Assembly: GCA_963666975.2 (NCBI GenBank) | Contig: CAXVYR010000003.1 | Location: 832,001-896,000, forward strand | Origin: Terriglobia bacterium | Lineage (GTDB): Bacteria > Acidobacteriota > Terriglobia > 2-12-FULL-54-10 | Length of the DNA: 64,000 nucleotides | Reading direction: 5' to 3' | Part shown: piece by piece, positions 39,128 through 64,000 of the stretch | How positions within the stretch are numbered: the first letter of the stretch is position 1 | How the letters are laid out: each line of letters starts with the position of its first letter | Made by a program: the position numbers and the translations under genes | Notes under the pieces: generated by a model | Seen by the model: only the letters and a program-made list of their open reading frames with translations | The model's database searches: none | Told to the model about the DNA's origin: nothing

Positions 39128-39617
39128 TTACAAGGTCCGAAGATAGGCTATCAGGTCGTCAATCTGCTCTTTGGAGAGAACGTCCTTCATAGGAGGCATC
39201 GAGCCGGTACCCTCTTCAATCTGCTTCCGAATGGTTGGCTCGTCATGATGGGCCATTTCCGTTCCGTCGGCCCTCTTGTGCGCAGCCATGTGGAACAGGC
39301 CCTTCAATCCCGGTCCCACTTTCGCCGTGTTGGATTCCGCTTCATGACAGAGCTCGCAATGTTGCTGGAAAAGCTCTTTGCCTTTCGATGCATTTCCTTT
39401 GCTGGCCACCGTCGCAGTCTTCTTTGCCTCACTCCCCTTTTGGGCCGTAGCGGCCTTGGAGGTCTCGTCATGGGAGTGCGTAGAACCCTCATCATGAGAG
39501 TGCGTAGCGCCCTCATTGTGAGAGTGATCTTCTTGGAGTCGCGCCGCGCCCACAGTTAAAACGAAAAAAAAATACAAACGCTCCAATAGAAAAACAACTC
39601 AGTCTTCTCAGACCCAT
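39128..39617 (-). CDS. c-type cytochrome with His-rich N-terminal repeats
   Basis: HSH repeated three times, CELCH, SMPPM; likely ATG at 39617 separated by an A10 homopolymer frameshift. Confidence 0.8.
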
Positions 39618-42552: not shown

Positions 42553-43410
42553 TCAGTGGCCGGAACGTATGGCTTGTGCGCGGGCTAACAGTTTCTTTCC
42601 CTCGGAAACCCTCCCCAGCGCCATGTGGATACGTGCCATTTTTTCCAACATTCCGGCCACACGGGGATGGTGCGGTCCGAGCTGTTTTTCCACAATAGCG
42701 AGAGATTGTTTCACAAGGGGTTCTGGTGCGTGATAGTCCCGCTGTTGCTCATAAGCCGTGGCTAAGTTGTTCAGCGATTGGGCAACATCGAGATGATCCG
42801 AGCCGAGGAACTTTTCTCGGAGCTCCAGTGCTTGTCGGTAAAGAGGCTCCGCCTCCGCGGGTTTTCCTTGATCCTGGAACGTTCTCGCTTTTCGGTCCAG
42901 GGATTCAGCAATTGCCAGAGCGCGGGATCGGACGGCAATGCTGCGCGTCCGCACTTGTTCGGCTTCAATCTCCCGTCCCATGGCTCCATAAATTTGAGCC
43001 AGTTTTTCCAGAGTCGGTCCGACATTGGGATCGTCCGGACCGAAAATCGCCTCTCCGATGGCGAGCACGCGCCGATACAAAAGCTCCGCTTCTGCATGTC
43101 GGCGCTGCGAACCGTATAGTTCAGCCAAGTTCTTCAGGGCCGTAGCCAGATTATGCCTCTCCAGCTCTCCCGCGTTTTCCCAAATGGTGGCAGCCTGCTG
43201 ATAGAGGGGCACCGCTTCTTTACTCCCCCCCAGCGCTGTATAAATGTGTGCCAAGTTGTTTAGCGATTGTGCCACTTCGGGGTGGTTGGGCCCGAGAAGC
43301 TTTTTCTGAATGGCCAGAGCCTGCTCTTGGTAGGTTTCGGCACGCATGTAGTGCTGCCGGGCTTCTGACTCTCCAGAGGCGGGATTCATCCAGCACTGGT
43401 CCCCTTGCAC
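42553..43410 (-). pseudogene. Kinesin-light-chain-type TPR protein, probably N-truncated
   Basis: GPNHPEVAQSLNNLA repeats; 5' end abuts the truncated MTase. Confidence 0.75.
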
Positions 43411-46400: not shown

Positions 46401-47470
46401 GGCCAGTTTCACCCTCCCCAATTGCCGGCCATGCCAGCGCACCTCTCCGCTCGCCTTCCCGGGACTCTTTGGCCCCGCGATTTGCTCTGCGCTCATGCTC
46501 AGAATCGTTTCAATCAAACCTCGCCCGGCCCGATCAATCACCTCATCCACCGCCAGACGCGCCTCCGTGATCAGATCCACCACCGGCAACAGCATCTGTC
46601 CGTTGGTTTGGCAAAACTTCTGGATGGTTTCTTCGGCTCCCTTGGAACCCAGTTCCAAAACGTGATATTTTCCCTTCATTCGGCGGTTCTCCTTCTATAG
46701 GATTTAGGCTTGGCCCGATTCTATTCGATTCGGGCCGAACCGCCGTTCAACCTTCAACTATGTATGGCGACACCCTCAACTTTCTTAAACGATGGTGGCA
46801 GCTTGCCTACCCACGGGACGATATGATCCAAGCGATTTCAGCTCTTGATCAATATATTGTATGTGGCCGGGTCACATCTAGGCCTATCTTTGAGTTTGTA
46901 TCAACGACAATCCGTCCGAACGACGCGCTGATGGTGTTCCCTTATGATGATGACTATTCGTTCGGAATATTACAGTCAGAGATTCACTGGCTCTGGTTCG
47001 TTAATCGCTGTTCAACGCTAAAAGGCGACCCGCGCTACACGTCAAACACTGTCTTTGACTCTTTTCCCCGGCCTCAAGGCCCCACGGTCAAAGCAGTGCA
47101 AAGGGCCGCTCAGGCAGGCGCTGAATTGCGGGCGCTGCGGAGGGAACTGAAACACCAGCATGACATGTCATTTCGGGAGCTTTACCGGACGCTTGAACTG
47201 CCCGGAGCGTCACCGCTCAAGGATGCGCACGGGAAGCTGGACCATGCGGTGCGCGATTGCTACGGCATGAAGAAGTCAGATGATCCGCTCGCCTTTCTGC
47301 TCGACCTCAATCAGACCGTAGCCAACCGGGAGGACGCCGGAGATTCCGTGGTCGGACCCGGCCTTCCGCCGGTCGTGAAGGACAATTCCAAATTGGTGAC
47401 GGATGACTGCATCAGAATGCCGAATGGTGTAATTGAACCCGACGCTGCTACCCTCGCGGAAGGATCGTAA
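43405..47470 (+). pseudogene. MmeI-like (type IIL/IIG) adenine methyltransferase / R-M enzyme, N-truncated and IS256-interrupted
   Basis: W.KVNPAIFG.IFQ, GAHFT, VLDPACGSGNFL, IIGNPPY; C-terminal RYT..VFDSFP..LKDAH.KLD.AV resumes at 46778. Confidence 0.85.
45315..46777 (-). mobile_element. IS256-family element copy 2 (transposase 45336-46679; right end garbled)
   Basis: Near-identical to copy 1; left end at 46777; candidate TSD AACTTTCT at 45307-45314 and 46778-46785. Confidence 0.88.
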
Positions 47471-47475
47471 TGTTA

Positions 47476-47911
47476 GAAGCTGCAGCGGTGGCCTCTCTTG
47501 GTGCTTCAACACCTTGCGAAAGAAGCGCTTGGCGGCTCTCTTGTCTCGGTGGCGTGTGACCAAAATATCCAGGACATCGCCGTCCTGGTCCACCGCTCTC
47601 CAAAGATAATGCCGCTCGCCGCGGATCGTGATGAACAGCTCGTCCACATGCCAGATGTCACCGAGACGACCTTGTCGCCGCCGCAGAGTTCGGGTGTACT
47701 CCGGTCCAAACTTCCGGCACCAAGATCGGATGGCTTCGTAGGACACCGTGACGCCACGCTCGGCGAGAAGGTCCTCGCAATCGCGAAAGCTGAGCGTGAA
47801 CCGATGATACAGCCAAACGGCATGGCTGATGATTTCGGGTGGAAACCGGTGCCGTCGATACAGTGATCCCATCGGTCGATTGTCGCCGACGGACGTTAAC
47901 TTGACAATGCC
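47476..47911 (-). mobile_element. Truncated IS6-family element
   Basis: YRRHRFPPEII..VWLY, WHVDE, YLWRAVDQDG; end ggcattgtcaagtt at 47898-47911. Confidence 0.85.
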
Positions 47912-48074
47912 CCGCGAGGGGCGCTCCTGACTGATCCTGCACTGTACCTCGCAGCGTCGCTATGCTCCCCTGTGCCAACGCCCCCACACTTGCCCAGAAA
48001 TGCAGCGTGATCAGAAGCACTGCCGAAAGAATCAAACCTTGCGCTACTGACTTGGATGCGTGCATGCTCCGCAC
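47912..48074 (-). pseudogene. N-terminal stub of a TonB-dependent receptor / carboxypeptidase-regulatory domain, cut by IS6
   Basis: Signal peptide plus AQGSIATLRGTVQDQSGAPL ending at the IS6 end. Confidence 0.65.
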
Positions 48075-48272
48075 TTCCTCGAAAAGGCTGGCCTCAATCT
48101 ATAAAAACTAGAGACGCTCTAATGGGAGCACTTGATAGGTGACGGTGTGAACGAATCTGCCACCGGACCGTCCATGGCTCTGTTCATACGATCTGTGAGG
48201 CGTACAAAACGTCTTTCGGTCCACGAGTCTCGGGACCTGCCATCAATAATCAACCCAGAGTAATAGCACTAA

Positions 48273-48556: not shown

Positions 48557-50392
48557 CTAGAAGATCGGAGAGCGGTAAACTACCCGACCGTCCACTGCGG
48601 TTAGTAGGGTGTTGATATTGACGATTTCTCTTTCCGGAATCGAAAAATAATCCTTATCAATAACGATAAAATCAGCCAATTTCCCTGGCTCGAGAGAACC
48701 CAGCCGGTCGCCGCGAAGAAGGAATTCTGCGGGCCAATTCGTCCAAGCCCGCAAAGCTGTAATGCGGTCGATTCTTTCTTCCGGACTGTAAACTCTTCCA
48801 TTGATCTCTCGGGTCACCCAGGTACCCACCCAAGGCCAAACAGAGTTCCGGTAACTTCGCGGCCAGTTATTGGACCACAAAGATTCACCTATAAATACTT
48901 CTTCGGTGTCGGCATCGGGTGCCAGGCCTATGTGGGCATCTGATGATAAGAAGATGCGTGCGCCGGCGTCCAAGAAACTTTTAACCGGCATTACCCATTT
49001 TAAGTATTGCTCTCCATAATCTTCAATGACCCCGGGTGCCGTACTCGCAAGCTGGGTGGCTTGAAAATTCATCCAGAAGCCATAATGAGCAAAAATTGGA
49101 ATTTGATCTGGCCTGATGATATTGGCGTGATCGAAGCCCATCTTCAGATCTCGAATCTGCTCCAAGGTCGTGCTTTTGTTTCTGATCGCCGTTTCCATGA
49201 TTCGAAAAGCGGCGTCCAAAGCCCGGTCGGTCATCGCATGAACATTGGCCAGCCTCAAGCCGGTCTCCACCGCCGCTAAATGCCCCTGATAATATTTGGA
49301 CTGCGGCAAAATCCCCTGGCAGGCACCCTGAATACGTTTTCGGTCTCGTTCTTGGAGTTCAGGAGTCTTGGCAGGTGCTGTAGGCGGACATCCGGTGCTG
49401 GCCCAGCCCTCATACCCGACGCCGAAATTCCATAGATAATCACTGCCCTGACCGAGAAAGTTGCCGAGCAGTTTGTAATACTCGGCTGGATCTTTCCCCA
49501 AAAATCCACTTTGGTGGTTCCACGCCCAACGCACGGGCATTCTTCCTTGCCGGTCCAAGAGGTTTAACGCATTGTAGATTCCCACATTCTCTTCGCTGTG
49601 GCTAGCTATCGTAGTAACTCCAAAGGATGCCGTTTCTTTCAATTCGTGCAATAACATGTCACCAATTTTCTGCGGATCTGCCCCCAGAATAATGCCGTAA
49701 ACAGTGTCGTACCAGATCCGAAGTCCTGTCTGCTCATATCCCAATTTGTCGAGCATGATCTGTTTAGCTTTGGAATTTGCATACCCGGTGAAAAAGCCTG
49801 CCGTCAGTGCCACCGGGGTGTCGGGAGCTATTCGGTCCAGATCCGCGCGTGCAAGCCCTTCCGGCGATTCAACCAAAAGCTCGTCCATTTCGTGAGGGAT
49901 AGCAACCATAATCCACTTTTCTGGACCGTTCTGTTGGATTCGGCGTCGAATTGCCGGTCCCAATTTCTCTGCCACCTCAGCGATCGTCTTGCCGGGAATA
50001 TAGAGCGGGATGAGACTTTCATCATATTGGCCTCCCCATTGCCACAGACCCCATAAGTGAGGGTGTGAATGGGCGTCGATCATCCCTGGGAGCACCGTTC
50101 TTCCTCTCGCGTTGATCAATTCTGTTTGTGGTCCGGCCAGTTCTTTGATTTCCTGATCGGTGCCCAGCTTCCAGATCTTATTACCCCGGACGGCCATCGC
50201 CTGATGATTGGCTAGATTCTGATCCATAGTGGCAATCTTTCCGTTATGCACAATCAAGGTGGGATAGACCGCCAACTTCTCCAAGGTAGCCATAGATGGG
50301 GTTTGAGCTTGAACTTTTGCCGGTGCCAGCAGAAAAATCATGACAATTGCCAGCCAGGTCGAAGCAGTTGATAAAGTTCCTTCTTTTTTCAT
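48557..50392 (-). CDS. Secreted amidohydrolase-3 (YtcJ-like), paralog B
   Basis: Signal peptide VQA, HNGKIATMD, PGMIDAHSH, HAMTD, FDH, SSDAH, GSLEPGKLADF. Confidence 0.88.
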   Translation of the reverse strand: MKKEGTLSTASTWLAIVMIFLLAPAKVQAQTPSMATLEKLAVYPTLIVHNGKIATMDQNLANHQAMAVRGNKIWKLGTDQEIKELAGPQTELINARGRTVLPGMIDAHSHPHLWGLWQWGGQYDESLIPLYIPGKTIAEVAEKLGPAIRRRIQQNGPEKWIMVAIPHEMDELLVESPEGLARADLDRIAPDTPVALTAGFFTGYANSKAKQIMLDKLGYEQTGLRIWYDTVYGIILGADPQKIGDMLLHELKETASFGVTTIASHSEENVGIYNALNLLDRQGRMPVRWAWNHQSGFLGKDPAEYYKLLGNFLGQGSDYLWNFGVGYEGWASTGCPPTAPAKTPELQERDRKRIQGACQGILPQSKYYQGHLAAVETGLRLANVHAMTDRALDAAFRIMETAIRNKSTTLEQIRDLKMGFDHANIIRPDQIPIFAHYGFWMNFQATQLASTAPGVIEDYGEQYLKWVMPVKSFLDAGARIFLSSDAHIGLAPDADTEEVFIGESLWSNNWPRSYRNSVWPWVGTWVTREINGRVYSPEERIDRITALRAWTNWPAEFLLRGDRLGSLEPGKLADFIVIDKDYFSIPEREIVNINTLLTAVDGRVVYRSPIF

Positions 50393-50460
50393 AATTCACC
50401 TTCCTACGCAATGTGATTTCGTTCAATCGCTAACCAGACGAACCAAATTTGTGGAGACAA

Positions 50461-52326
50461 TTAATAACCGGGATCTTTGAAGACTACCCTCCCCCCAATT
50501 ACTGTCATCAGTGTCTTGATATTGAGAATTTCCTCTTCAGGGATCGTGAAGTAATCCTTGTCGATGACCACAAAATCGGCGAGCTTGCCCGGTTCCAATG
50601 ATCCAAGTAGATCCCAACGCAGCAGGTACTGTGCGCCTCCGTTTGTCCAGCCTCGCAGGGCAGTAATCCGGTCGATTCTTTCCTCCGGTACCCATACCTG
50701 TCCGTCAAGTTCCCGCGTCACCCACCAGCCCACCCACGGCCAAACAGAGTCCCGATAGGGAAACCCCGCAGCCAAGTCGTTCCAAAACCGCTCCCCTTTG
50801 TCCGGAAGTGTACCGACGTGAGTATCGGTTCCAAAAACCACCCGCGCGCCCGCGTCGATCAGACTCTTAAGCGGTGCCCTCCACTTCAAATGGTCCTCGT
50901 CCCACAGATTCTCAACAGTTGACCATGCAACTTGGCTCGCTGATCCTGCAAAATGGCACGGTTGAAAATTCAACCAAAAACCGTATTTCACTAAGTTGGG
51001 AATTTGATCTGGCCGAATCCACATATTATGATCAAAGCCCCACCCGGGCTCTCGAATGTTCTTAAGGGTGGTCGCTCCTGAACGAATCAGCTCATCCGCG
51101 AGAGCAATGGCCCTTTCATAACCCAGGTCCCCCGTCAGAGCGTGCACGTCGACCAGACGCAAGCCCGCTTTTGCCGCAGCCAAGTGGCCTTGGTAGCTCT
51201 TCGACTCTCTCGGGATGCACGGATTGTACTTCAAGCGATCTTCTACCTGCTGGGCAGTTTCATTCTTCCGCTTGGCTGACAGGCAGTCTCCAAACGCATC
51301 CCAAGGTTCCCAACCAACTCCGAAATTCCACAGATAGTCGCTGCCTTGGCCAGCAAAATTGCCAAGAAGACGATAGAATTCCGCCGGATCCTTGCCAAAA
51401 AACCCGCTTTCGTGTGACCAAGCAAAGCGGTGTGGCAGGCTACCTTGCTTATCCATCATGTTGAGAGCATTGAAGACTTCAACGTTCAGTTCACCATGCG
51501 TCCCAATCGTCGTAATGCCATACCCAGCAAATTCCTTCATTTCTCGGCCTATCAGGTCGGCCGCCTTTTCAGTCTGGCCAGCCAGGATAATGCCGTAAGT
51601 GGTGTCGTATTCCACACGAACGCCAACCTGCTCATAACCCAGCTTCTCAATCATGATTTCTTTCGCCTTGGTGTTGCCGAAAGCCTGGCAACAACCCGAT
51701 ATCACCACGGTAGGGGTGTTGGGCGCGATCTCATCCATGATGTCACGTGTAATAAGGCCCCCACCAGAACGCGGGGTAGAGTCCGCATTGATGGGATGGC
51801 TGATCAGATTGCTTGCTCGGAACTTATGCGGCACCACGGTGTAGACCCACTTGTCCTCTCCCCGTTGCTGGATGCGCGCTTTCAATGCCGACGCATAGTT
51901 TTCCACTACCTCTTCCGGAGTCTCTCCGTCCACGTACACGGGCTCCAATTGTGGGTCGATGTCTCCCCCATGATGCCACAAGGCCCACATCTGAGGGTGT
52001 GTGTGCACATCAATCAGACCGGGCGTCACCGTCCGGCCTTTTAGGTCAATCAATTGTGTTTGCGGTCCAGCCAGTTCTTTGATCTCCTGGTCTGTCCCGA
52101 GCCTCCAAATCTTGTCGTCCCGAATAGCCATGGCTTGATAAAAGGTCAGGTTCTGGTCCATCGTGGCGATCTTCCCGTTGTACACAATCAGGGTGGGAAA
52201 GACGGCTAACTTATCTAAGACGGCCCTGGACGGGGATTGCGCCTGAGCACTCTTCGCCGCCAAGTAGCTCACGGAGACAAGAAGTAAGAAAGTTATGAGA
52301 GTTGGAACCAAGCTAGATTTTCTCAT
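50461..52326 (-). CDS. Secreted amidohydrolase-3, paralog C
   Basis: MRKSS signal peptide AQA, PGLIDVHTH, HALTGD, FDH, GTDTH, GSLEPGKLADF. Confidence 0.88.
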   Translation of the reverse strand: MRKSSLVPTLITFLLLVSVSYLAAKSAQAQSPSRAVLDKLAVFPTLIVYNGKIATMDQNLTFYQAMAIRDDKIWRLGTDQEIKELAGPQTQLIDLKGRTVTPGLIDVHTHPQMWALWHHGGDIDPQLEPVYVDGETPEEVVENYASALKARIQQRGEDKWVYTVVPHKFRASNLISHPINADSTPRSGGGLITRDIMDEIAPNTPTVVISGCCQAFGNTKAKEIMIEKLGYEQVGVRVEYDTTYGIILAGQTEKAADLIGREMKEFAGYGITTIGTHGELNVEVFNALNMMDKQGSLPHRFAWSHESGFFGKDPAEFYRLLGNFAGQGSDYLWNFGVGWEPWDAFGDCLSAKRKNETAQQVEDRLKYNPCIPRESKSYQGHLAAAKAGLRLVDVHALTGDLGYERAIALADELIRSGATTLKNIREPGWGFDHNMWIRPDQIPNLVKYGFWLNFQPCHFAGSASQVAWSTVENLWDEDHLKWRAPLKSLIDAGARVVFGTDTHVGTLPDKGERFWNDLAAGFPYRDSVWPWVGWWVTRELDGQVWVPEERIDRITALRGWTNGGAQYLLRWDLLGSLEPGKLADFVVIDKDYFTIPEEEILNIKTLMTVIGGRVVFKDPGY

Positions 52327-52456
52327 GATTTTTCCTCCTAACAAGTTGTTGTGCTAGTAGAGTTGGAAGAGAAGGCAAAGCGACACGCTGACGCCACGTT
52401 TTCCTGCCCTTCTTCGGAGCTACACTAATAACCGCTTATTCTGGGTGGCTGCGATT

Positions 52457-54337
52457 TCAGTAGTTCGGAGCCTTGAACACTGTCTTCCCTCCCACGGCGG
52501 TCAACAGGTTCTGGATAGTGTGGATTTGGTCCTCGGGAATCGTGAAATAGTCCTTGTCAATAACGATGAAATCGGCCAGCTTCCCCACCTCCAGCGAACC
52601 AATATCTTTCTCTCGTAACACTTGGTAAGCTGGGTTGATAGTCACCGCCTTCATCAGATCAACCCGATCCATCCGCTCATTTTGGTCGTAAGTAACCCCC
52701 TCATTAGGCATCCGGCGGGTCAGAAAGAACTCCACATAGGGCCAAATCGAGCCATCCCACTCATTGGCGTAGTTCATGTCCTTGAACTCAATAGGAACTT
52801 TGGTTAAGTGCGCATCGGTAGACATCACTACCCGAACCCCCGCGTCTGCCATGGCCTTCATCGGTTCCAGCCAGCCCATGTATTTCTCGCCATAGGTTTG
52901 CAGAAACGGCCCACCATAACTGGACTGCTGAACCCGAAAGCCGCTAAAATTGGGTATGATCCCATACTTAGCTAACGTGGGGCCCTGCTCGGGGCGGATC
53001 ACCGCATTGTGCTCAAACTGAATCCGCGCGGCTTGGACTTCCTCCAGGGTAAGCTTGCCCTCGGCTATCAGACCCTCCAGCATTCGGAATACGATATCGT
53101 AAGTCCCATCGGTGTAGTTGTGCATATACGCCATTCGTAGACCCGCTTCCAACCCTGCCCGCACATTGCGGTAACCCCCAGTGTTCTCATAATCTCTGGA
53201 GTCAGAACAGGGACCGGGACCACTTATCGGTTTGTTGGAGTCGAGGGGCTGGGCTTTGGTACAGCGAAGACCAGGAATACCACCTTCCCAACCTTCATTG
53301 GAAACTCCGGCATTCCAAATATAATCGTTCCCGATCCCCCGGAAGTCGCCCAGGTTGCGATAAAAGAAACTGAGATCGTTGTCATCATTGTTCCAAAGGG
53401 TGCCCACGTACCAAGCCCATCGCACGGGCAGCTCGCCCCGCTGGTAGAGCAGATTGTAGATTTTCATGATGGAGGGGGTACCGTAATAATGGTTGGCGAA
53501 GGTCGTGACTCCTTTAGCAGCCACACATTGCAACAGTTCCCGCTTCAGGAAGTCCATCTTCTCCTCTGTTCGCCCCCGGAAAAGAATGTCATAAGTGACT
53601 GGAGTCCGCGCCCTTAAGCCTACTTCTTCCCGACCCAGGAACTTTATCATCTCCTCCTTGGCTTTGGTGTTGTTGGCCGCAGGCCCAACAGCCTGTCCGG
53701 TCATCACCATGAGGGGGTTGTTCGGTGCCAGCGTGTCCAAATACTCTCTGGTAATTGTGCCCCGAAAGAGAGGGTCTACAATCTCTCGTGATTTGGGCAG
53801 GCTGTCCTTGCCGGCAAACACGAAAACCCAAATCCACTTGCCGGGGCCTAATTCTTGTGCCCTCTGTCGAACTACCCGTTCCAAGGACCGCAGCACTTCA
53901 GCTTGGTCCTTCCCCTTGGCGGCAACAATCTTCAGTTGGGGATCGTTGTATTTCTTGGAGATAAACTCCCCTTCCGCGCCCAACCAGTGCCCCACAGCCC
54001 AGACATGTGGATGGGTGTGGCCTTCAATCAAGCCCGGGAGCACTGTCCGGCCCTTCGCGTCCAGGACCTCAGTGTTCGGACCAGCCAGAAACCGGATGTC
54101 ATTATTGCGGCCCAGCGCCAGAATCCGGTTATTCCTGACCGCCATGGCCTCTACCTCGGTTAGCTGTTCATCCATAGTGGCAATCTTGCCATTGACCACA
54201 ATGAGGTCTGGATAGGCGTTGAGCCGCTCCAGTTTACTCATCAAATCGGCCGCACTTTGCCCGTGCACCCTCCCGGGCACGAGAAGAATAACAAGGGCCA
54301 ACAAAATCGACCCGCTCAAAGAGCCCATTTTTTTCAT
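52457..54337 (-). CDS. Secreted amidohydrolase-3, paralog D
   Basis: Signal peptide, PGLIEGHTH, HNYTD, FEH, STDAH, GSLEVGKLADF. Confidence 0.88.
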   Translation of the reverse strand: MKKMGSLSGSILLALVILLVPGRVHGQSAADLMSKLERLNAYPDLIVVNGKIATMDEQLTEVEAMAVRNNRILALGRNNDIRFLAGPNTEVLDAKGRTVLPGLIEGHTHPHVWAVGHWLGAEGEFISKKYNDPQLKIVAAKGKDQAEVLRSLERVVRQRAQELGPGKWIWVFVFAGKDSLPKSREIVDPLFRGTITREYLDTLAPNNPLMVMTGQAVGPAANNTKAKEEMIKFLGREEVGLRARTPVTYDILFRGRTEEKMDFLKRELLQCVAAKGVTTFANHYYGTPSIMKIYNLLYQRGELPVRWAWYVGTLWNNDDNDLSFFYRNLGDFRGIGNDYIWNAGVSNEGWEGGIPGLRCTKAQPLDSNKPISGPGPCSDSRDYENTGGYRNVRAGLEAGLRMAYMHNYTDGTYDIVFRMLEGLIAEGKLTLEEVQAARIQFEHNAVIRPEQGPTLAKYGIIPNFSGFRVQQSSYGGPFLQTYGEKYMGWLEPMKAMADAGVRVVMSTDAHLTKVPIEFKDMNYANEWDGSIWPYVEFFLTRRMPNEGVTYDQNERMDRVDLMKAVTINPAYQVLREKDIGSLEVGKLADFIVIDKDYFTIPEDQIHTIQNLLTAVGGKTVFKAPNY

Positions 54338-54492
54338 GCCTTTCCTCGTTTTTCAAACGTCTTTGAACGTAGTTAATCTCCCGAGAAGATCTTTTCGGAC
54401 TCCTCACGGTTTGCTGCAGGCACGCTTCCGATCCTCAGGACACGGAATTATGGTACTTTGTCAAGCCGATAACCACAGTTAGTAATCGGGAG

Positions 54493-56663
54493 TTAGTAAT
54501 CGGGGTCTTTGAAACCCACCCTCCCCCCAATTACTGTCATCAGTGTCTTAATATTCATTATTTCGGCTTCGGGAATCGTGAAGTAGTCCCTATCCAACAC
54601 GATAAAGTCGGCGAGCTTGCCCCGCTCCAATGATCCCAGTTTATCCCAACGGAGCAGGTACTTTGCGCCTTCGTTGGTCCAGCCTCGCAACGCCGTAATG
54701 CGGTCGATTCTTTCCTCCGGGACCCATACCCTTCCGTTCAGTTCCCGCGTCACCCACCAGCCCACCCACGGCCAAATGGAATCGCGATAGGGAAATCCCT
54801 GCGCTAAGTCGTTCCAAAACCGCTCCCCTTTGCCCGGAAGCGTACCGACGTGAGTATCAGTTGAAAAAACTACTCGGGCGCCCGCGTCGATTAGACTTTT
54901 AAGTGGTCCCCTCCACTTCAAATAGTCTGGGCCCCACAGATTCTCAACGTCCTCCCATCCCGCAAGCCCCGCTGATCGTGAGTAATGGCACGGTTGAAAA
55001 TTCAACCAAAATCCGTATTTCACTAAGTTGGGAATTTGATCTGGCCGAATCCACATATTGTGAGCAAAGCTCCATCCGGGATCGCGAATGTTCTCAAGGG
55101 TGGTTGCTCCTGAAAGAATCAACTCATCCGCAAGAGCAAAAGCCCGCTCGTAAAGGAGGTCTCCCGTCAGACCGTGCAGCTCGGCCAGACGCAAGCCCGC
55201 TTTTGCCGCAGCCAAATGGCCTTGGTAGCTCACCGACTCTCTCGGAATGCACAGATTGTACCTTAACCGATCTTCTACCTGCTGGGCCGTCTCATTCTTT
55301 CGCTTGGCGGATAGGCAATCTCCAAATGCATCCCAAATCTCCCAGCCAACTCCAAAGTTCCACAGATAGTCGCTGCCTTGGCCAGCAAAATTGCCAAGAA
55401 GACGATAGAATTCCGCCGGATCCTTGCCAAAAAATCCAGTTTCGTGTGTCCAGGCAACGCGCTGCGGCAGGGTACCCTTCCGGTCCATCATGTTGAAAGC
55501 ATTGAAGACTTCCACGTTCATTTCACCGTGCGTCGCAACCGTAGTAACACCATACTCGACAAATTCCCTCATTTCACGGCTTATCAGGTCGGCCGCCTTT
55601 TCAGTCTGCCCAGCCAGAATAATGCCGTAAGTGGTGTCGTATTCCACACGAACGCTCGTCTGCTCATAACCCAGCTTCTCAATCATGATTTCTTTCGCCT
55701 TGGTGTTGCCGAAAGCTCGGCAACACCCCGATATCACGACGACTGGTGTGTCGGGCGCGATCTCGTCCATGATGCTGCGGGTGATACCGCCAGGAGCTGG
55801 TGTATAGTCTTCGTTTTGGGGGAGCAGTTGGGTTTCGAACTTGTGCGGCACAATGGTGTAGATCCACTTGTCCTCTCCCCGTTGCTGGATGCGCGCTTTC
55901 AATGCCGACGCGTAGTTCTCCACTACCTCCTCTGGAGTCTCCCCATCCACATACACGGGCTCCAATTGTGGGTCAATGTCTCCCCCATGATGCCACAAGG
56001 CCCACATCTGAGGGTGTGTGTGCACATCAATCAGACCGGGCGTCACCGTCCGGCCTTTTAGGTCAATCAATTGTGTTTGTGGTCCAGCCGATTCTTTGAT
56101 CTCCTGGTCGGTCCCGAGCCTCCAAATCTTGTCGTCCCGAATAGCCATGGCTTGATAAAAGGTCAGGTTCTGGTCCATCGTGGCGATCTTCCCGTTGTAC
56201 ATCAATCAGGGTGGGATTCTTCGGACGGCTAACTTCGGCTCTAATTGACGTGTCCCTCCAACTGTTGGCGCGGCCATGCCAGCGCACCTCTTCGCCTTCC
56301 CGGGATTGCTGCCGTCAGATCTCCCCGTGAGCTATCTTGATCCACGGCGGCAACAGCGCTTTATTGGCACAGCCAAAACACCGGAATCGCCAGTCAGCGA
56401 CCGACTTCGAAGCATGTATGGGACACCCTTTGAAAGCCCATCCACTTGGTAAACGGATGGAATTTCTTCATGGTATGGCCCTCCTTGATAAAAGGTCAGG
56501 TTCTGGTCCATCGTGGCGATCTTCCCGTTGTACACAATCAGGGTGGGATAGACGGCTAACTTCTCTAAGATGGACGGGGATTGCGCCGTCAGACTCCCCA
56601 AGGACAGCCAAAACACCGGAATCAGTAGCAGACAAGTGAAAGCCGTGGTTGGAATTTCTTCAT
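54493..56663 (-). CDS. Secreted amidohydrolase-3, paralog E (5' end duplicated/garbled; intact ORF 54493-56205)
   Basis: Close paralog of C; GGAGG plus ATG AAG AAA at 56663 and again at 56471. Confidence 0.78.
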
Positions 56664-56794
56664 GGTATGGCCCTCCTCCATTATTTTGGGAAACAGGTTC
56701 CTCTGCGATTAGCGAAAAAGGATAAACTTCCCGAAGATAAATCTTCGGGAAGTTTAAAAGGTTTCGGTGCACAATCGGATCTTCGGCACTGGAG

Positions 56795-59700
56795 CTAGAA
56801 GATGAACTTCAACCCGAACTGGATCTGGCGTGAGGTATTGCTCGTTGTGGACACTCGTCCTGCTGTCGGATTTACACCTGAAGTGGCAGATGTAAAGACG
56901 TTGGGGTCTGGTTCGAAAAAGTTCGGGTGGTTCAAGATATTGAAGAATTCCGCCCGAAACTGTAGGTTTTTGCTCTCCCCCCAAAGGGTGTTCTTTACCA
57001 GCGAGAAGTCAAAGTTGGTCAATCCTGGCCCGATGATCGTGTTGCGCCCCGCGTTCCCAAAATAGCCCTCAGGCTGCAGCTCAAAAGCACTCGGATCAAA
57101 CCACTGGGCTGGATCGCCCAGGACCGGATTATTGCTCCTACCCGGCTTCAAATCGGGTCGGACCGCGTTGATGGTACCCGCCCACAGACCGGCAGCCCGG
57201 TCAAAGAACAGAGTGGCTGAAGTCGGCAGACCGGAATTCAGCGTGACAATTCCGGAAATATCCCACCCGCCGAGCAGTTTCCCCGCCACCCCTGTCAAAT
57301 TTCGACCCATGGGCAGCTCATAGGAGTAAGTGGCGTTGAAAACATGCGGTCGTTGAAAATCTGACAGGCCGCGTTCGCAAATCCGGCAATCTGTATTCTG
57401 AATATCCTGCTTTCGGTTTCCACCCGATTCCCCAATCCGGACGCTGGAGAAATCGTCAATGGACTTGGACCATGTGTAGTTGAGCGTCAGCATGAAACCG
57501 CGGCGCAACCTCTTGTTTAGAGACATCTGCAAAGACTGGTAGTTGGAATTGGCCTCAAAGAACCGCAGCCCGAGCTGGTCAAAGTTGGGATTGCGGCGTG
57601 TGCGAAAACTTCCCTCCTGGATGCCCCACCTTCCATCCGGCAATATGGTAGTTGGAGCGTAATTCGCATCTCGCCCCATCCCCAGGTGGCGACCCATAGA
57701 GCTTACGTAACCAATCTGGAAAGCCATTTCACCCGGCAATTGCCGCTGGATGTTCAGGTTATATTGCATCACACTGGGAGATGCGGTGGTATTGTAATCG
57801 CTCGGTTCGTCTATTCCAGCCAGCGACCTGGTCGGTTGGAATTCCGCCCACAAAAGGTTGTGGGAAGGGAGGGAAAAACTTACGAACACTGTGTAACTGC
57901 GGTGGCGCGTCTACCCAGAAGGTATAGATATGCGCCAGCATGGGTTCATAATATGCGCCAGCATGGGTTCATAAGATATACCAAACCCGCCTCGCACGGC
58001 TGTTTTTCCGTTGCCTGAAACGTCCCAGGCGAATCCAAACCGCGGAGCGATGTTTCTGAGCGTGGGATTGTTGCGGAAGGGTCTCCTCACCAAACTCCAG
58101 TCGGTGTCGTTCACCGGATCCGCCGCTACGCCGAACTGCCCATCATTACGTTTATTGGCGTTCGTTGCGTTAGTCTGGAATTCGTACCGCAGCCCTAGGT
58201 TCAAGGTGAGCCTGGAGTTCACCCGCCAATCATCCTGGAGGTAGAAGGCAGATAACCACTGGCGCCAATAAGCACTAGGGTCAGACCCCGGCGTGGCGCC
58301 AAGAAATAGCAGCGGCTTCGCCTCGAGAAAAGGATCCATATGCGTAAATATGTGAAATCCGGTGACCTGATATTCGTAAAAGAAGAAGTCTCGGAACCGC
58401 TCGAGGAGCCCCCCGAATTTGAGGGTATGTGAGCCTCGGTTTAAAGTAACATCGTCACTGAACTGGAAGGAATTTCGAAGAGTGACGCTGTTATTGGCCC
58501 AAGACCCCGTTCCCAGGGGACTTAAACCTCCTACAGAGAGATAGCCAATCCGCTTGTAGCTCGGAACAAACCGCATGAACTCTGGTTCTTCCGCAGAAAG
58601 TCCCACATGTCCAGTGCGCGTGTAACCAACCCGCACAGTATTCAGGAATTGCGGGGAGACAATAGCTGTCCATTGCAGAGTTGAGAAGTAGCTACCGCTG
58701 TTGGCGGATTTCGGGAAGCCAACAGTCTTTGCTGAATTAAACGGGGCCGTCGTGACCGCCCGGTCTTGGGTGTAGCGGCCGAATAGGCTGTGTTTTTCGG
58801 AGATTTGATGGTCAATCCGGACTTGCCAAAAATTCTGAGTGGTAGGTTGAGTTGCCGTACTCACGTGCTCTTGGATACCACCCCCGAGCAAAGGTCCATT
58901 CGGTTCCGCCGGATACAGATCTAGGAAGGGCTGAATCGCTGGACTCACGGTTACTGTTCTCCCTGGCAGAATCCCCTGCCGGGCCTCTTTCGAAGGTATA
59001 AAGCCCACGCTGGTTACTCCAAAGCGATCTCGTAAGCCCTCATAGACACCAAAGAAAAAGGTCCTGTCGGGCACGAGCGGCCCGCCTATCGAAGCGCCGA
59101 ATTGATTCCGCTTGAAGGGTGGGATAGGATCCTCTCCCCTATCGAAGAAGTTCTTCGCGTCCAGAGCGCTGTTCCGCAGGAACTCGAAAACGGATCCATG
59201 TATCGTGTTGGTCCCACTCCGTGTGGCCACATTGATGATCGCCCCGTTGGTTCTTCCATATTCGGCACTGTAGTTATTCGTCAACAGCCGAAACTCCCGA
59301 ATGGAATCCACTCCGAGATTTCGGCCTCCCACGCCGGAGCCGGCACGATAGAAGAAACTATTTATACTGGTGCCGTCTAACAGCGTGATGCTCTGGGTCG
59401 GCCGCGAACCGGCCGCCGAGAACCACATTGTAGATTGGGCGAAACCAGGAATACTCTGATCGCCGCCTGTTGCGTTAGGCCGGGCCAAAAACACGCCCGG
59501 TTGCAGCAGAACCAACTGATCGAAACTACGGCCATTCAGCGGGATGTCTCGAATGGTTGTTCCTTCTACCAACGCAGTGACAGCAGAGCTAGTTGTCTCA
59601 ACTATGGGGGCCTCCCCGGTCACCGTAACCGTTTCTGCCACGGCCCCTACCTGCAGAGTAAAATCCACCATCGCTTCCTGCCCCACCGCCAGCGTGATAC

Positions 59701-59983
59701 CAGTGCGCACCACGGTTCGGAAACCTGCGGACTCGGCTCTCACTTCATAACCGCCTAGCCCTATCTGGAGAGTCGTGTATCGACCCTCGCTACTCGTAGT
59801 GACTATCCGTTCGATTCCTGTTTCCAGGCTTCTGGCTGTCACCATTGCTCCGGGAATGACAGCTCCTGTCGAATCGGAGACGGTCCCACTGATCGTTCCA
59901 CCTGTACCTTGCCCCAGAACCTTACTGCCTGTAAGCACGATCAACACCACCACTAACCCCACACCCAAGAGTAGCTTAACCAT
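56795..59983 (-). CDS. TonB-dependent receptor, Oar-like (carboxypeptidase-regulatory N-domain); frameshifted near 57830-57970
   Basis: ISGTVSDSTGAVIPGA, IPLNGRSF, YSAEYG, YLQDDWRV..LTLNLGLRYE, APRFGFAWD, C-terminal RQIQFGLKFIF. Confidence 0.88.
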
Positions 59984-60145
59984 TGTTCCCTCCATATCTT
60001 AGGAAATTTTCTGCCCAGTCGGCGCCCCGCCTAACGATTAAGCCGGAATTCCCATTTTGGGTTCCCGAGTGGCTGTCAGTATGCACCCGGGAAAACCACC
60101 ACAAACTTCTAGGGGAATCAGCGTGTTCGGTATTCCCGAAAACAA

Positions 60146-61592
60146 GAGGGTGTCCCATACATAGTTGAAGGTTGAACGGCGGTTCGGCCCGAATCGAATA
60201 GAATCGGGCCAAGCCTAAAGTCCTATAGAAGGAGAACCGCCGAATGAAGGGAAAATATCACGTTTTGGAACTGGGTTCCAAGGGAGCCGAAGAAACCATC
60301 CAGAAGTTTTGCCAAACCAACGGACAGATGCTGTTGCCGGTGGTGGATCTGATCACGGAGGCGCGTCTGGCGGTGGATGAGGTGATTGATCGGGCCGGGC
60401 GAGGTTTGATTGAAACGATTCTGAGCATGAGCGCAGAGCAAATCGCGGGGCCAAAGAGTCCCGGGAAGGCGAGCGGAGAGGTGCGCTGGCATGGCCGGCA
60501 ATTGGGGAGGGTGAAACTGGCCGATCGCCAGCTGCGGGTGGAGCGGCCCCGGCTGCGCCGGAAGGGCGGAGGGGAAGAAGCGGTGCCGGCCTACGAAGCG
60601 CTGCGGAAAAGCGAGAAGACGGGCGAGGAGATGTTCGAGGCACTGTTGAAAGGGGTTTCGACGCGGAACTACCGCGAGGTGATCCCGGAGATGGCCAACA
60701 GCGCTGGGGTGTCGAAGTCTCAGGTGAGCCGGGAAGCGGCCGAGCAAGGAGCGCGGCGGCTGGAAGAACTGTTGGCGCGGCGCTGGGAGGAGGTCGAGAT
60801 TCTGGTGATTTACCTGGACGGAATGCGGTTCGGCTCCCACCACGTCATCAGCGCCGTGGGCGTGGACAGCGAGGGCCGCAAGCATGTGCTGGGGATTCAA
60901 CTGGGCGCGACCGAAAACGCCGCTGCGGTGAAAGACCTTCTCACCCGCCTGCGCCAGCAAGGTCTGCGCACGGATCAGCGCTATCTGTTTGTGATCGACG
61001 GCGCCAAAGCGCTCCGCGCGGGGATCGAGGAAGTATTCGGCAGCAATCAGCTGGTGCAGCGTTGCCGTACTCATAAGCTGCGCAACGTGGCTGAGCGGTT
61101 ACCAAAGGGCGACAAAATGCTGGCGAATCAGGTGCGGTCGCTGATGCGCGCCGCCTGGCGATTGCCCCAAGCCGAGGAAGGCATCGTGCGCATAAAAAAG
61201 CTCGCTGGGATGATCGAGTGCGATCATCCGGCAGCAGCCGCCAGCTTGCGCGAAGGGTTGGAGGAGACCTTTACGATCAATCGAGCCGACGTTCCTCCCA
61301 GCCTCCACCGCTGCCTGGCAACCACGAACCTCATCGAGAGCCCGCAGTCGGGCGTGCGGAAAAAGACTGGCAATGTTTGCCGCTGGCGCGACGGCGAGAT
61401 GACGTTGCGCTGGGTGGCAGGAGCGTTTCTGCTGACCGAGAAGAATTTCCGGAAGATCATGGGTTATCACGATCTCTGGGCTTTGGCATCGATTCTCGGC
61501 CGAAGTCCAAACGCTGCTTCCTCTCACAAGGAGAAAGTGGCGTAATATGAACTCAACCCGCCGTCCCAACCTGCAACTGAGTTTGGGACACC
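60146..61592 (+). mobile_element. IS256-family element copy 3 (transposase 60244-61545)
   Basis: Same IRs and transposase; flank GAAAACAA recurs on both sides (60138-60145, ~61615-61622). Confidence 0.9.
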
Positions 61593-61647
61593 GAGTGGCT
61601 GTCAGTATGCACCCGAAAACAAAAAGCCGACTTACCACTGATGGCTG

Positions 61648-61701
61648 TTAGCGATGCCACCTGCGACGAGTCGGCTCTTTTTGTTTTTGTCGGGGCTTCA
61701 T
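61648..61701 (-). CDS. Candidate 17-aa leader peptide MKPRQKQKEPTRRRWHR
   Basis: GGAGG RBS; overlaps the 5' arm of a hairpin followed by a U-tract. Confidence 0.35.
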   Translation of the reverse strand: MKPRQKQKEPTRRRWHR

Positions 61702-61867
61702 TTCGTGCCCCCTCCCGACTTTTACCCCTCTCTTACGCGGGGCTAGGTCGCGAACAAGATTTCGTTACCCGGTTTACGTTCCGAGCGAAACTTGGGCCTT
61801 GCCTCTGGTGAATTTGCGGTTGGACAACTGAGAGCGAAACCGCGACTCAGAGAGGCTAACTGCGGGG

Positions 61868-61896
61868 ATTCTGCTCCCTCCGGAGGAGGCTGTCAA
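61868..61896 (-). promoter_or_regulatory. Sigma70-like promoter facing the receptor-amidohydrolase operon
   Basis: TTGACA-17 nt-CAGAAT on the minus strand. Confidence 0.55.
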
Positions 61897-61912
61897 GGAC
61901 TTTTTAGGAAGG

Positions 61913-63331
61913 TGTCGTTAGCACATGATATGTCCGGTGGAAATAGCAAGTGAAGTGTCCGCTTTGAAGGCGGTCTAGGGTAAGAGCATCTATCCAGGAG
62001 GTGGAGATGGAGTCATACCCGAGGGCCGCGATGGAGCGGGCAATGAAGATACAAGAAGTAATCTTGCGAGCGATAGGGAAGCGGATCAACTGGTGGCAGG
62101 CAGCCGAGATCATCGGGATCAGCGACCGGCAGATGCGGCGGTGGCGCAGCCGGTAGGAGCAGTACGGCTACGAGGGGCTGTTTGACCGGCGGCGGGGAAA
62201 GCCGAGTCCGCGGCGGGTACCCCTGAGGACGGTGGAGAAGGTGCTGGGGCTGTATCAGGAGAAGTACTTTGACTTCAACGTGCGGCACTTTCACGAGAAG
62301 CTGCGGGAGGAGCACGGCCTCCGGCTGAGCTATACGTGGGTGAAGCTGGCGTTGCAGGGGGCGGGGTTGGTAAACAAGAGGCGGAAGCGGGGCGTGCACC
62401 GCCAGCGGCGGCCCCGGCGGCCGTTGCCGGGGATGCTGCTGCATCTGGATGGGAGCCAACATCAGTGGTTTGTCGATGATCGCTGGTATGACCTGCTGGT
62501 GGTTCTGGATGATGCCAGCAGCGAGATTTACTATGCGCAACTGGTGGAGCAGGAATCGACGCGGACGGTGCTGGCTGCCCTGCGGGAGGTGGTCGAGCAA
62601 CAGGGGGTCTTTTGCGCCCTTTATAGCGACCGGGCCAGTCATTTCTTCCTGACCCGGAAGGCGGGCGAGCCGGTGGATCGGCAACGGCCGACCCAGGTGG
62701 GCCGTGCACTGCGGGAGCTGGGCATTCAGATGATTCCGGCCTACTCGCCGCAGGCGCGAGGACGTGGCGAGCGGAATTTCGGGACCTGGCAAGGGCGGCT
62801 ACCACAAGAGTTGCGCCTGCGGGAGATTACTACGGTCGAGGCAGCGGATGGGTTCCTGCGGGAGGGCTATATCGGGGAGTTCAATCGGCGCTTTGCCGTG
62901 CCGACCGCCCAACCGGGCAGCGCCTTTTTGCCGCCAGCCAGACGGGAGTTAGACCGCATCTTCTCGATCCAGCACGAACGGGTGGTGAATCGGGACAATA
63001 CGGTCAGTCTGGAGAACCGCCTCCTCCAGATCGAGAAAACTCCTTGGCGCTGGACTCTGGCGGACTGCCGGGTGACCGTCTATGAACACCTGGATGGGAC
63101 GTTGAGCATTGGCTATGGAGCGCATACGGTGGGCCGCTACTCCTCCGAGGGGGTGGCAATCCGGTGCGGCGCTCGGCGGCGGAGCCCCGTGGCTTCCCGA
63201 CAACACCATTTGGCGCTCACCTCCGTCGCCCTACGGGCTCCTTCGGTCAGCGCCAAACCACTTTCGGTAGAATCATGAAACCGGACATTTCACTTGCTAC
63301 AAATACCGGACAGTTTAACTTGCTAACAACA
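61913..63331 (+). mobile_element. IS1202/ISNCY-type element; transposase 62007-63278 with in-frame TAG at 62154
   Basis: Long TGT..ACA IRs with repeated tagcaagt...tgtccg submotifs; LDGSQHQW, DDASS, YSDR, AYSPQARGRGER. Confidence 0.85.
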
Positions 63332-63737
63332 AGTGCGGCTGGGAGCCGGTGGGACAGTCTAGGAGAAAACCTTGCCCGGAGGGCTCCACTGGGGGCAAAC
63401 GGGTGTATATTCGTTACCGTCGGGAGGCCAAAAAGTTTATTCCGGGTAAGATGCTGCCCGGAAAGCCAGTTCTTTTCTGGGGTGAACCGCTTCCAGTGGC
63501 GGGACTGGAAGTTTTCCTTCCGGATAGCCCTGCTTTCATCATGAATGCCATCAGTATCGCAAATTGATCCCGACAGGACAATGATGCAGATACATCATTT
63601 TCAGAATGGCTGCCTTCCAGGTGTTCCTGTTTGCGCTGGAAGGGCTCGGTTGGAGGCTGATGGGTGTATACTCGCAACCGACGGAGGGTCAAAAAACTAA
63701 TTCCAGCTTATAGCTATAACTGAAAGGAGTCCAATCG

Positions 63738-64000
63738 ATGAAGCGAAGCCAAACAAAAAAGACATTCTATTCGTTAATCCTGTTTTGTTTCCTGACCGGG
63801 GCTGGGGCGGTTCCGGTTTCGCAGGCTCAATCACCGGAGATCTCCATGCTGGAGCAACTAGCCGTTTACCCCACCCTGATTGTCTACAACGGGAAGATTG
63901 CCACCATGGACCAGAACCTAACTTTTTTCCAAGCCATGGCGATTCGGGACGACAAGGTTTGGAGGTTAGGGACAGACCTAGAGATCAGAGAATTGGCCGG
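63738..64000 (+). CDS. Secreted amidohydrolase-3, paralog F (runs off window end)
   Basis: AGGAG RBS; MKRSQ..SQAQSP..LAVYPTLIVYNGKIATMDQNLTFFQAMAIRDDKVWRLG; not in the ORF track. Confidence 0.85.
   Translation, partial: MKRSQTKKTFYSLILFCFLTGAGAVPVSQAQSPEISMLEQLAVYPTLIVYNGKIATMDQNLTFFQAMAIRDDKVWRLGTDLEIRELA

Follow-up and report, generated by a model that had tools for sequence, protein, structure and literature searches.

YtcJ-like amidohydrolases belong to the Pfam family Amidohydro_3 (PF07969; COG1574 and cd01300), and the same family includes NfdA, an N-substituted formamide deformylase. In the polysaccharide utilization loci (PULs) of Bacteroidota, the gene for an outer-membrane TonB-dependent transporter stands beside genes for exported hydrolases. 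Among the PF07969 enzymes, the secreted metallo bile-salt hydrolases of Bilophila carry Sec signal peptides and cleave bile-acid amides, as reported in a 2026 preprint (10.64898/2026.04.05.716592). In Myxococcus xanthus, the protein Oar, in which a signal peptide and a CarboxypepD_reg extension precede a plug region and a barrel, is required together with TonB for secretion of the 50.8-kDa protease PopC out of the periplasm (PMC6434023). Here we describe an array in which the gene for an Oar-class TonB-dependent receptor is followed by four co-directional genes for YtcJ-like amidohydrolases of exported type. It lies in a 64,000-nt stretch of DNA from a soil-type Terriglobia bacterium, and this whole stretch is hereafter called the window.

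The array is one copy of a recurrent module of an acidobacterial family, and one of 17 receptor-linked clusters in its own genome. We put at roughly one in two the probability that this receptor-amidohydrolase module serves uptake and periplasmic hydrolysis.

An Oar-class receptor gene is followed by four amidohydrolase genes

The genome that contains the window (G000) comprises 4.23 Mb in 4 contigs and is 98.9% complete. Open reading frame (ORF) calls and Pfam matches define the array on the minus strand, where the receptor gene is followed by the genes for amidohydrolases D, C, B and A. Two further relatives, E and F, are encoded on the plus strand. The features of the array and of these relatives are as follows, with lengths in amino acids (aa).

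48557-50392, minus strand: amidohydrolase A, 611 aa, exported type; PF07969 E 7e-42; signal-peptide-like N-terminus
50461-52344, minus strand: amidohydrolase B, 627 aa, exported type; PF07969 E 6e-35; modeled with AlphaFold2
52457-54337, minus strand: amidohydrolase C, 626 aa, exported type; PF07969 E 1.3e-31; signal-peptide-like N-terminus
54493-56205, minus strand: body of amidohydrolase D, a 570-aa ORF without signal peptide as assembled; PF07969 E 1e-31
56206-56690, minus strand: disturbed 5′ end of D, with ATG and signal-peptide coding at 56483-56690 and a degenerate partial repeat at 56206-56482
56723-56756, minus strand: hairpin with 15-bp stem and T-run directly after the receptor stop codon; possible terminator or attenuator
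56795-59995, minus strand: Oar-class receptor gene, two ORFs of 694 and 364 aa in the assembly
57928-57973, minus strand: 23-bp tandem duplication in the receptor gene, copies 57951-57973 and 57928-57950, read from the sequence
63738-64000, plus strand: 5′ end of amidohydrolase E; whole gene at G000:C3:895738-897603, 621 aa; signal-peptide-like N-terminus
40580-42478, plus strand: amidohydrolase F, 632 aa, distant clade; PF07969 E 6e-34; signal-peptide-like N-terminus

All four enzymes encoded behind the receptor gene match PF07969 (E 7e-42 to 1e-31), as an earlier note made from the letters of this stretch had proposed, and A-D together with F score 111-145 bits against this model, whose cut-off is 29.7 bits. 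The gaps between the array genes measure 68-155 nt. The Oar-like receptor named in the same note is indeed encoded upstream of D and carries CarboxypepD_reg and OMP_b-brl_4 domains, but its gene is split in the assembly into the two parts listed above. The fifth and sixth relatives proposed for positions 63738 and 40580 are likewise present; two insertion sequences lie between E and the receptor gene.

At the protein level, B and D are 85% identical, B and E about 75%, and A and B 52%. Enzymes A, B/D and C share 37 to 54% identity with one another, with C being 37 to 39% identical to A, B and D, and F is ~30% identical to all of the other five. Thus, the array mixes one recent duplicate pair with old paralogues.

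Receptor adjacency exceeds chance in a genome with 100 paralogues

A protein search of G000 with the B sequence returned 133 matches. Using a hidden Markov model (HMM) built from the full-length matches, with ORFs of at least 550 aa counted as full length, we found 100 full-length amidohydrolase paralogues that total 189.7 kb, or 4.48% of the genome, as well as 32 shorter ORFs that are fragments or shorter relatives. Full-length Oar-like receptors number 35 and account for 2.64% of the DNA. The amidohydrolase ORFs are arranged in 85 runs, of which 61 consist of a single ORF, 14 of two and 10 of three to seven; the seven-gene array is located at G000:C2:306638-330927. A receptor gene directly adjoins 17 of the 85 runs (46 ORFs), compared with 2.2 runs on average, and 9 at most, when runs were shuffled as blocks 2000 times. 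Receptor adjacency in this genome therefore exceeds chance, at about eight times the permutation mean.

Several of these adjacencies are recent segmental duplicates, and hence they are not independent events. The receptor gene and D of the window are duplicated as a unit at G000:C3:1359942-1365144 (88-97% identical), where the intact counterpart of D (G000:C3:1359942-1361661) shares 96.7% nucleotide identity with it. A copy of A and the end of B, 98.4% identical, is found at G000:C4:773227-775776.

The earlier note knew of no described system with this architecture. Our literature search, in which papers were mostly judged from abstracts, found no description of such loci or of such an amidohydrolase expansion, but the array is one of 17 such clusters in G000 and in that sense is not singular. 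The census and its permutation test are new here.

The genes that most commonly surround the amidohydrolase genes as a whole encode transposases (sets of 13, 12 and 11 members). Smaller and inconsistent neighbor sets comprise CarboxypepD_reg/beta-propeller proteins, NHL-repeat proteins, molybdenum hydroxylase subunits and acyl-CoA synthetases. The molybdenum hydroxylases are of the xanthine dehydrogenase family, and genes for four large subunits and three flavin adenine dinucleotide (FAD) subunits lie no more than 4 genes from amidohydrolase genes (G000:C2:293650-297369, C2:69821-73262, C3:320414-322627 and C4:227921-230419), a faint hint of N-heterocycle catabolism. Six proteins that combine CarboxypepD_reg with a Vgb-lyase/SGL-type beta-propeller are also encoded near amidohydrolase genes, including those at G000:C4:206971-208599 and C4:2229108-2231210.

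Other parts of the genome hold further relatives of the array. Three IS256-like copies have broken up a close relative of D at G000:C4:763300-771200, whose pieces are 95-100% identical at the nucleotide level, and a truncated B-like piece is present at G000:C4:775285-775742. Six shorter matches to the amidohydrolase HMM (487-509 aa) adjoin another Oar-like receptor gene at G000:C4:198266-225812, an array that probably represents another amidohydrolase subfamily linked to receptors in the same way.

The module recurs in related genera

Matches at E <= 1e-20 were found in all 13 sampled genomes of the same family, many of them at the upper limit of the score; of 27 genomes sampled from ten further families of the class, one had such a match. 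A relative with 50% identity is present in a public Terriglobia metagenome-assembled genome (MAG). Among 20 arrays or top matches from seven same-family genomes, which represent at least five genera, 14 have an Oar-like receptor gene in the fetched stretch of DNA; two of the six that have none reach the edge of that stretch. We also applied a profile of the subfamily to 151 genomes of the phylum, the unpublished G063 and G086 among them. Scores above about 480 bits were reached only in G000 and in G148, a member of another family; 79 of the 151 genomes yielded lower-scoring matches (up to 255 bits) to YtcJ-like proteins in general.

Contig 9 of the same-genus genome G001 carries an amidohydrolase array with truncated copies and transposases, with an Oar-like receptor gene in two ORFs (233 and 832 aa) located 5 kb away. 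This disorder is of the same kind as that seen in the window.

The enzymes have a YtcJ-type fold and lack a lysine found in the nearest structure

An AlphaFold2 model of B, built from an alignment of 45 homologues, reached a mean predicted local distance difference test score (pLDDT) of 88.8 and a predicted template modeling score (pTM) of 0.88. Its best Foldseek matches among Protein Data Bank (PDB) entries are 3ICJ (E 2e-28) and 3IGH (E 5e-28), both with probability 1.00, 19 to 20% identity and template modeling (TM) scores of 0.72 to 0.73 on the target length, which supports a YtcJ-type TIM-barrel fold. Further matches, at E about 1e-14 to 1e-16, include imidazolonepropionases, triazine hydrolases and molinate hydrolase. 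A sequence-profile search of the PDB also returned 3ICJ (E 8e-27), along with molinate hydrolase (E 6e-11) and phenylurea hydrolase B (E 4e-6), whose alignments span only the C-terminal 50 to 65 residues.

No NCBIfam model matched above its cut-off; the best score was 59 bits against a required 391, and all matches covered short N- or C-terminal stretches. Public homologues are named only "amidohydrolase family protein," "predicted amidohydrolase YtcJ" or "hypothetical protein," and the ESM Atlas returned only generic acidobacterial "amidohydrolase family" clusters. By these searches of NCBIfam and the PDB, with the uncharacterized 3ICJ and 3IGH as best structures at about 20% identity, the enzymes fall within no characterized clade; the earlier note had named placement in such a clade as grounds for refutation.

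Active-site residues were counted in the 93 full-length G000 paralogues and assigned to strands by alignment to 3ICJ. The predicted metal ligands are H114 and H116 of an HxH motif after strand 1 (93/93), H401 and H439 after strands 5 and 6 (88/93 and 87/93, respectively) and D507 after strand 8 (89/93), and the same positions are invariant or at least 90% conserved in the 45 homologues. This conservation suggests that the family is catalytically competent. At the column aligned to the Lys of the 3ICJ segment GVKLFVDG, 85 of the 93 paralogues have Gly and none has Lys. We take this Lys to be the carboxylated bridging ligand that follows strand 4 in binuclear members, and if this role is correct, then the metal centers of the array enzymes would differ from the canonical one. 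The absence of this residue is a new observation. Two cysteines, Cys354 and Cys376 in B numbering, are kept in 80 and 82 of the 93 paralogues, respectively, a pairing that is consistent with a disulfide formed outside the cytoplasm.

Signal peptides were scored with a crude heuristic of our own, which 87 of the 100 paralogues passed; several of the 13 failures look signal-peptide-like by eye or have over-long starts. Only 2 of the 100 carry a lipobox. In the window, five of the six paralogues have signal-peptide-like N-termini, in none of which a twin-arginine motif is visible, and so the suggestion that all six carry Sec-type signal peptides holds by this heuristic for all but D, which as assembled has none. 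Enzymes A, B and C are full-length, bear signal peptides and retain all metal ligands. With these export-type N-termini and conserved metal ligands, the classification of the proteins as YtcJ-like exported amidohydrolases, also made in the earlier note, is upheld.

The receptor is of the Oar subclass

The receptor matches CarboxypepD_reg (PF13620, E 1.9e-18), OMP_b-brl_4 (PF25183, E 2e-95 and 8e-87) and PF00593 (E 3e-7). The combination of a CarboxypepD_reg extension and a 22-strand-type barrel assigns it to the Oar subclass. The Pfam Plug domain (PF07715) gave no match at E up to 1 in residues 101 to 260 of the window copy; it matched 15 of the 20 paralogous N-termini that were aligned (best E 1.4e-7), and the alignment has an invariant P-L-N-G-R block in this region. 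A segment that resembles a TonB box by eye, ETVTVTG, follows the extension. The AlphaFold2 model of receptor residues 1 to 330 has a mean pLDDT of 49, with values below 50 from residue 118, and is unusable for the plug region. A phmmer search of PDB sequences with the receptor gave no match at E up to 0.01.

Breaks in the receptor gene and in D are not common to public contigs

In the assembly, an in-frame TAG separates the 694- and 364-aa parts of the receptor, and the frame is shifted by the 23-bp duplication just upstream. Likewise, the D ORF starts at an internal Met, and its signal-peptide stretch lies ~280 nt upstream, where the ATG and the signal-peptide coding are mutually out of frame. 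We aligned contigs from four public runs to positions 55900 to 58400, comprising DNA-type runs from three studies (X1, X4 and X6) and an RNA library (X12). In all three DNA-type runs, the bridging contig lacks one of the 23-bp copies as well as 3 and 1 nt at 57819/57823. The same three runs contain insertions of 6 and 7 nt behind positions 56570 and 56649, and both insertions bring the ATG and the signal peptide of D into one frame.

When the differences of X4 and X6 were applied by script, a single receptor frame of 1057 codons resulted, which is 84% identical from end to end to the intact paralogue at G000:C3:1361900-1365139. The receptor frame in X4 and X6 and the D starts in three runs show that intact alleles of the receptor gene and of the start of D exist in nature. 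Because the public contigs are free of these breaks, the cluster of small insertions and deletions at 56.5 to 58.0 kb may be an assembly error. That the breaks of the G000 copy are not common to public contigs is a new observation. The degenerate repeat upstream of D (56236-56487) has no cover and no joining contig in the four public runs. Contigs of the X12 RNA library, with 95 to 99% identity, cover only parts of the receptor gene and are not proof of transcription.

The array resides on an island integrated at a tmRNA gene

The array belongs to a segment of DNA that begins at a transfer-messenger RNA (tmRNA) gene, and its remaining features in the window are listed below.

30356-30706, plus strand: tmRNA gene identified by ARAGORN; left end (attL) of the array-bearing island
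30728-31813, minus strand: tyrosine (phage-type) integrase, Pfam Phage_integrase E 1.4e-22; adjoins the tmRNA gene
47276-47872: IS6-family fragment, DDE_Tnp_IS240 on an overlapping ORF
47658-48074, minus strand: receptor stub, the remnant 5′ end of a second Oar-like receptor gene, 138 aa, cut by the IS6-family fragment
60146-61592, plus strand: IS256-family insertion sequence, transposase 60244-61545, Transposase_mut E 3.6e-35; bounds the array upstream of the receptor gene
61890-63331, plus strand: second insertion sequence, rve-type integrase ORF 62232-63278, rve E 1.4e-5, below the Pfam cut-off

The final 20 nt of the tmRNA recur as exact direct repeats at G000:C3:903385 and 903964, which are 40.7 and 41.3 kb downstream and lie beyond the window. 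In the same-genus genome G001, the tmRNA gene is located ~2.2 kb from a flank that is syntenic with G000:C3:908316-922566; this distance is 45.6 kb in G000. Thus, the ~41 kb segment is an integrated, integrase-bearing element at the tmRNA gene that is absent from G001. An integrase at the tmRNA 3′ end, a direct repeat on the far side and absence from a close relative are the marks of an integrative island, and all three are present, in agreement with the tmRNA island recognized in the earlier note. The location of the island at a tmRNA gene and its integrase suggest that the module can be gained by horizontal transfer, and this context for the array is also new here.

The right end of the island has two partial copies of the tmRNA 3′ end, each ~30 nt long, with a spacing of 579 nt (G000:C3:903373-903404 and 903953-903983), and this pairing suggests two successive integrations or a small second element. 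In addition to the six amidohydrolase genes, one receptor gene and one receptor stub, the island contains further items including several insertion sequences. Bases 47910 to 48097, at the receptor stub, match the 5′ ends of six other receptor genes in G000 at 87 to 93% identity. The rve-type element has about five near-full-length copies (87-98% identity) and fragments elsewhere in the genome.

The cargo of the island also includes a copper-resistance-like cluster (35575-39586) that encodes two cytochromes c, an outer-membrane efflux protein and a multicopper oxidase. Two overlapping ORFs (37035-37850 and 37658-38470) make up the gene for the oxidase, so that either a frameshift is present or the assembly is wrong here. 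An MmeI-type (type IIL) restriction-modification gene (43405-45393 and 46760-47470) is split by an IS256-like copy (45388-46777), such that the N-terminal, helicase-spacer and methyltransferase domains are on one side and the target-recognition and C-terminal domains are on the other.

A composite transposon formed by the two flanking IS256-like copies was considered and rejected, given that this ~1.4-kb element has 54 near-full-length copies (at least 95% identical) and 14 partial copies across the 4.23-Mb genome; this copy number points to a recent burst of transposition. Low G+C content is likewise not decisive as a sign of foreign origin, with values of 0.50 to 0.53 for the array, a median of 0.553 for the paralogue family and 0.57 to 0.58 for the three large contigs.

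Discussion

A module for uptake and periplasmic hydrolysis, to which we assign about even odds, would work as follows. The Oar-class transporter would bring amide-, ureido- or carbamoyl-linked compounds that are too large for porins into the periplasm, where differently specialized exported hydrolases would cleave their C-N bonds. Hydrolysis would release amines, amino acids or ammonia for uptake, and the ~100 paralogues would cover a wide range of substrates. The module probably serves the harvest of nitrogen-containing compounds. The sequence data show the domain identities, the fold, the export-type N-termini, the ligand conservation, the non-random adjacency, the recurrence in related genera and the island. 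Import as the direction of transport, action of the enzymes in the periplasm, co-expression of receptor and enzymes, and the chemical nature of the substrates are inferred. The substrate chemistry is suggested by characterized relatives in the family, which hydrolyze phenylurea, thiocarbamate, N-acyl amide and formamide bonds.

Substantial evidence speaks against a tight coupling between receptor and enzymes, and several observations thereby weigh against the module just described. Among the 85 amidohydrolase runs, 68 have no adjoining receptor gene, among them 61 single genes, and at the 17 linked runs the receptor gene is variable in order and strand (upstream at 10, downstream at 5 and on the opposite strand at 2). 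The adjacency counts, being drawn from one genome and from its kin, are not independent. Pairwise identities of receptors and of their adjacent enzymes, compared by a Mantel-type test that is new here, are uncorrelated across 11 modules (Spearman r = -0.19, a value reached in 4710 of 5000 permutations; r = -0.10 for the 9 modules that remain without recent duplicates). Thus, there is no sign of matched specificities between receptor and enzyme. No inner-membrane transporter, regulator or SusD-like partner was found to recur beside the arrays. A 15-bp hairpin with a T-run stands between the receptor gene and the enzyme genes, so that one transcript for receptor and D is not assured; terminator-like sites overall are not enriched (13 found versus 14.1 in shuffled sequences). 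Moreover, the receptor gene and D are interrupted in the present assembly, and X1, the run that best covers this stretch and may derive from the source sample, has an additional 1-nt deletion at 57785 that breaks the receptor frame after about residue 732.

Linkage also varies with lineage. A receptor gene lies within about 8 kb at only one of the seven best loci of G148 and at none of six loci in G118, which belongs to a lineage with more than 150 first-look candidates. These negative results from other lineages are new here, and they too count against a tight coupling. The expectation of the earlier note that receptor linkage extends to other genomes is therefore borne out within the family, where 14 of 20 arrays have it, but not in these two genomes. 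Because linkage is common in the family and near-missing in G148 and G118, it is a trait of the family rather than a universal property of the enzymes.

Much of this evidence would be expected if the 35 receptors and 100 amidohydrolases had expanded separately and were brought together by segment duplication, recombination and insertion sequences, with no functional coupling between them. The enzymes might then be, for example, scavengers or detoxifiers of amide-type xenobiotics or antibiotics that act on whatever reaches the periplasm. The uncorrelated divergence, the varied order and strand, the hairpin, the 68 unlinked runs and the scarcity of linkage in G148 (1/7) and G118 (0/6) all fit such a history, as do the segmental duplicates of the window module at two other places, the 54 near-full-length IS256-like copies and the D-like gene at C4:763-771 kb that is cut by three of them. 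We nevertheless regard it as unlikely, in view of an adjacency of 17 runs against a permutation mean of 2.2 and of the receptor gene that accompanies 14 of the 20 arrays from seven genomes of at least five genera. In addition, the window enzymes outside the B/D pair are 37 to 54% identical and the paralogue family ranges down to about 30%; if enzymes adjacent to receptor genes elsewhere show the same divergence, then the adjacency has been long kept or has repeatedly arisen.

The window copy by itself could instead be a decaying, non-functional remnant hemmed in by insertion sequences, such that nothing operates at this locus in the strain. The frameshifting 23-bp duplication and in-frame TAG of the assembled receptor gene are what such decay would produce, as are the missing signal peptide of D, the second receptor gene downstream of A that an IS6 fragment has reduced to a 138-aa stub, and the broken receptor frame in X1. 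This account becomes improbable when set against the full-length A, B and C with their signal peptides and complete metal ligands, the uninterrupted 1057-codon receptor from X4 and X6 with its 84% identity to an intact paralogue, and the intact D start in all three DNA-type runs, by which the small changes may be an assembly error. The RNA-library contigs on parts of the receptor gene (95-99% identity) add a weak hint in the same direction.

A different possibility reverses the direction of transport, with the Oar-class protein moving the periplasmic amidohydrolases across the outer membrane, as Oar does with PopC, so that the enzymes act outside the cell. The receptor does have the Oar architecture of a CarboxypepD_reg extension and a barrel, and M. 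xanthus needs Oar for PopC secretion from the periplasm (PMC6434023). The enzymes are soluble, Sec-exported proteins of ~65 kDa with a lipobox in only 2 of 100, and no inner-membrane importer recurs beside the arrays. We consider export decidedly improbable, though, since it would require one receptor to handle as many as seven different enzymes, receptor genes are missing beside 68 of the 85 enzyme runs, and receptors and enzymes do not co-diverge. PopC, moreover, is a protein without signal peptide that is unrelated to amidohydrolases (PMC6434023). Protein export by a TonB-dependent transporter is not known beyond this one case.

Uptake and periplasmic hydrolysis thus remains the reading that we prefer, and it can be extended, tentatively, to the acidobacterial family as a whole. 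A radiation of Lys-less, Sec-exported YtcJ-type enzymes, ~100 per genome, together with Oar-class transporters, might constitute modular, horizontally mobile "amide utilization loci," an organic-nitrogen counterpart of PULs that mines amide-bound soil nitrogen. In a bolder variant of this proposal, the Oar-class transporters would export the enzymes. Amide bonds hold much of the nitrogen of soil organic matter; few soil bacteria are as abundant as the Acidobacteriota, and few are so poorly understood. About 100 exported amidohydrolases in a 4-Mb genome, repeatedly encoded beside transporters and at least once on a mobile island, would represent a large, undescribed investment in C-N cleavage beyond the cytoplasm. 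If substrates are found, they would provide an enzymatic handle on organic-nitrogen turnover by Acidobacteriota, a new set of amidases with an unusual metal center, and a test of small-molecule import versus protein export by Oar-class transporters.

Comparison with known systems

The nearest structures, the YtcJ-like proteins 3ICJ and 3IGH from Pyrococcus, share with the array enzymes the Pfam match, the overall fold, and an HxH motif, two His and an Asp in the expected order. The array enzymes are only ~20% identical to these proteins, which are themselves uncharacterized, and are ~100 to 140 residues longer; they also carry a Sec signal peptide and a Cys pair, and have Gly at the column of the 3ICJ Lys. 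Molinate hydrolase (4UB9 and 4WGX) and phenylurea hydrolase B (4WHB) belong to the same superfamily and carry out metal-dependent C-N hydrolysis, with weak, partial matches to the array enzymes. The Bilophila bile-salt hydrolases are Sec-exported and encoded as adjacent paralogues, as are the array enzymes, but they have 945 aa and extra C-terminal domains (10.64898/2026.04.05.716592). Among the published descriptions examined, none reports a characterized PF07969 relative beside a TonB-dependent receptor.

The Bacteroidota PULs resemble the present loci in that a gene for an outer-membrane TonB-dependent transporter stands beside genes for exported hydrolases, with many divergent copies per genome. 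However, the transporter of the array is of the Oar subclass rather than SusC, the enzymes are amidohydrolases, and most of the enzyme genes are unlinked to a receptor gene. Neither a SusD-family protein, a carbohydrate-active enzyme, a sensor nor a regulator is encoded among the 17 ORFs between 40.5 and 64 kb or among 20 representatives of recurrent neighbors. Because no SusD-like partner, regulator or inner-membrane transporter recurs, the term "PUL-like" used in the earlier note is an analogy only. With M. xanthus Oar, the window receptor has in common a CarboxypepD_reg extension and a large barrel, and probably the plug region between them, although the Pfam Plug model matches only its paralogues. 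It differs in having amidohydrolases, not a subtilisin, as gene neighbors.

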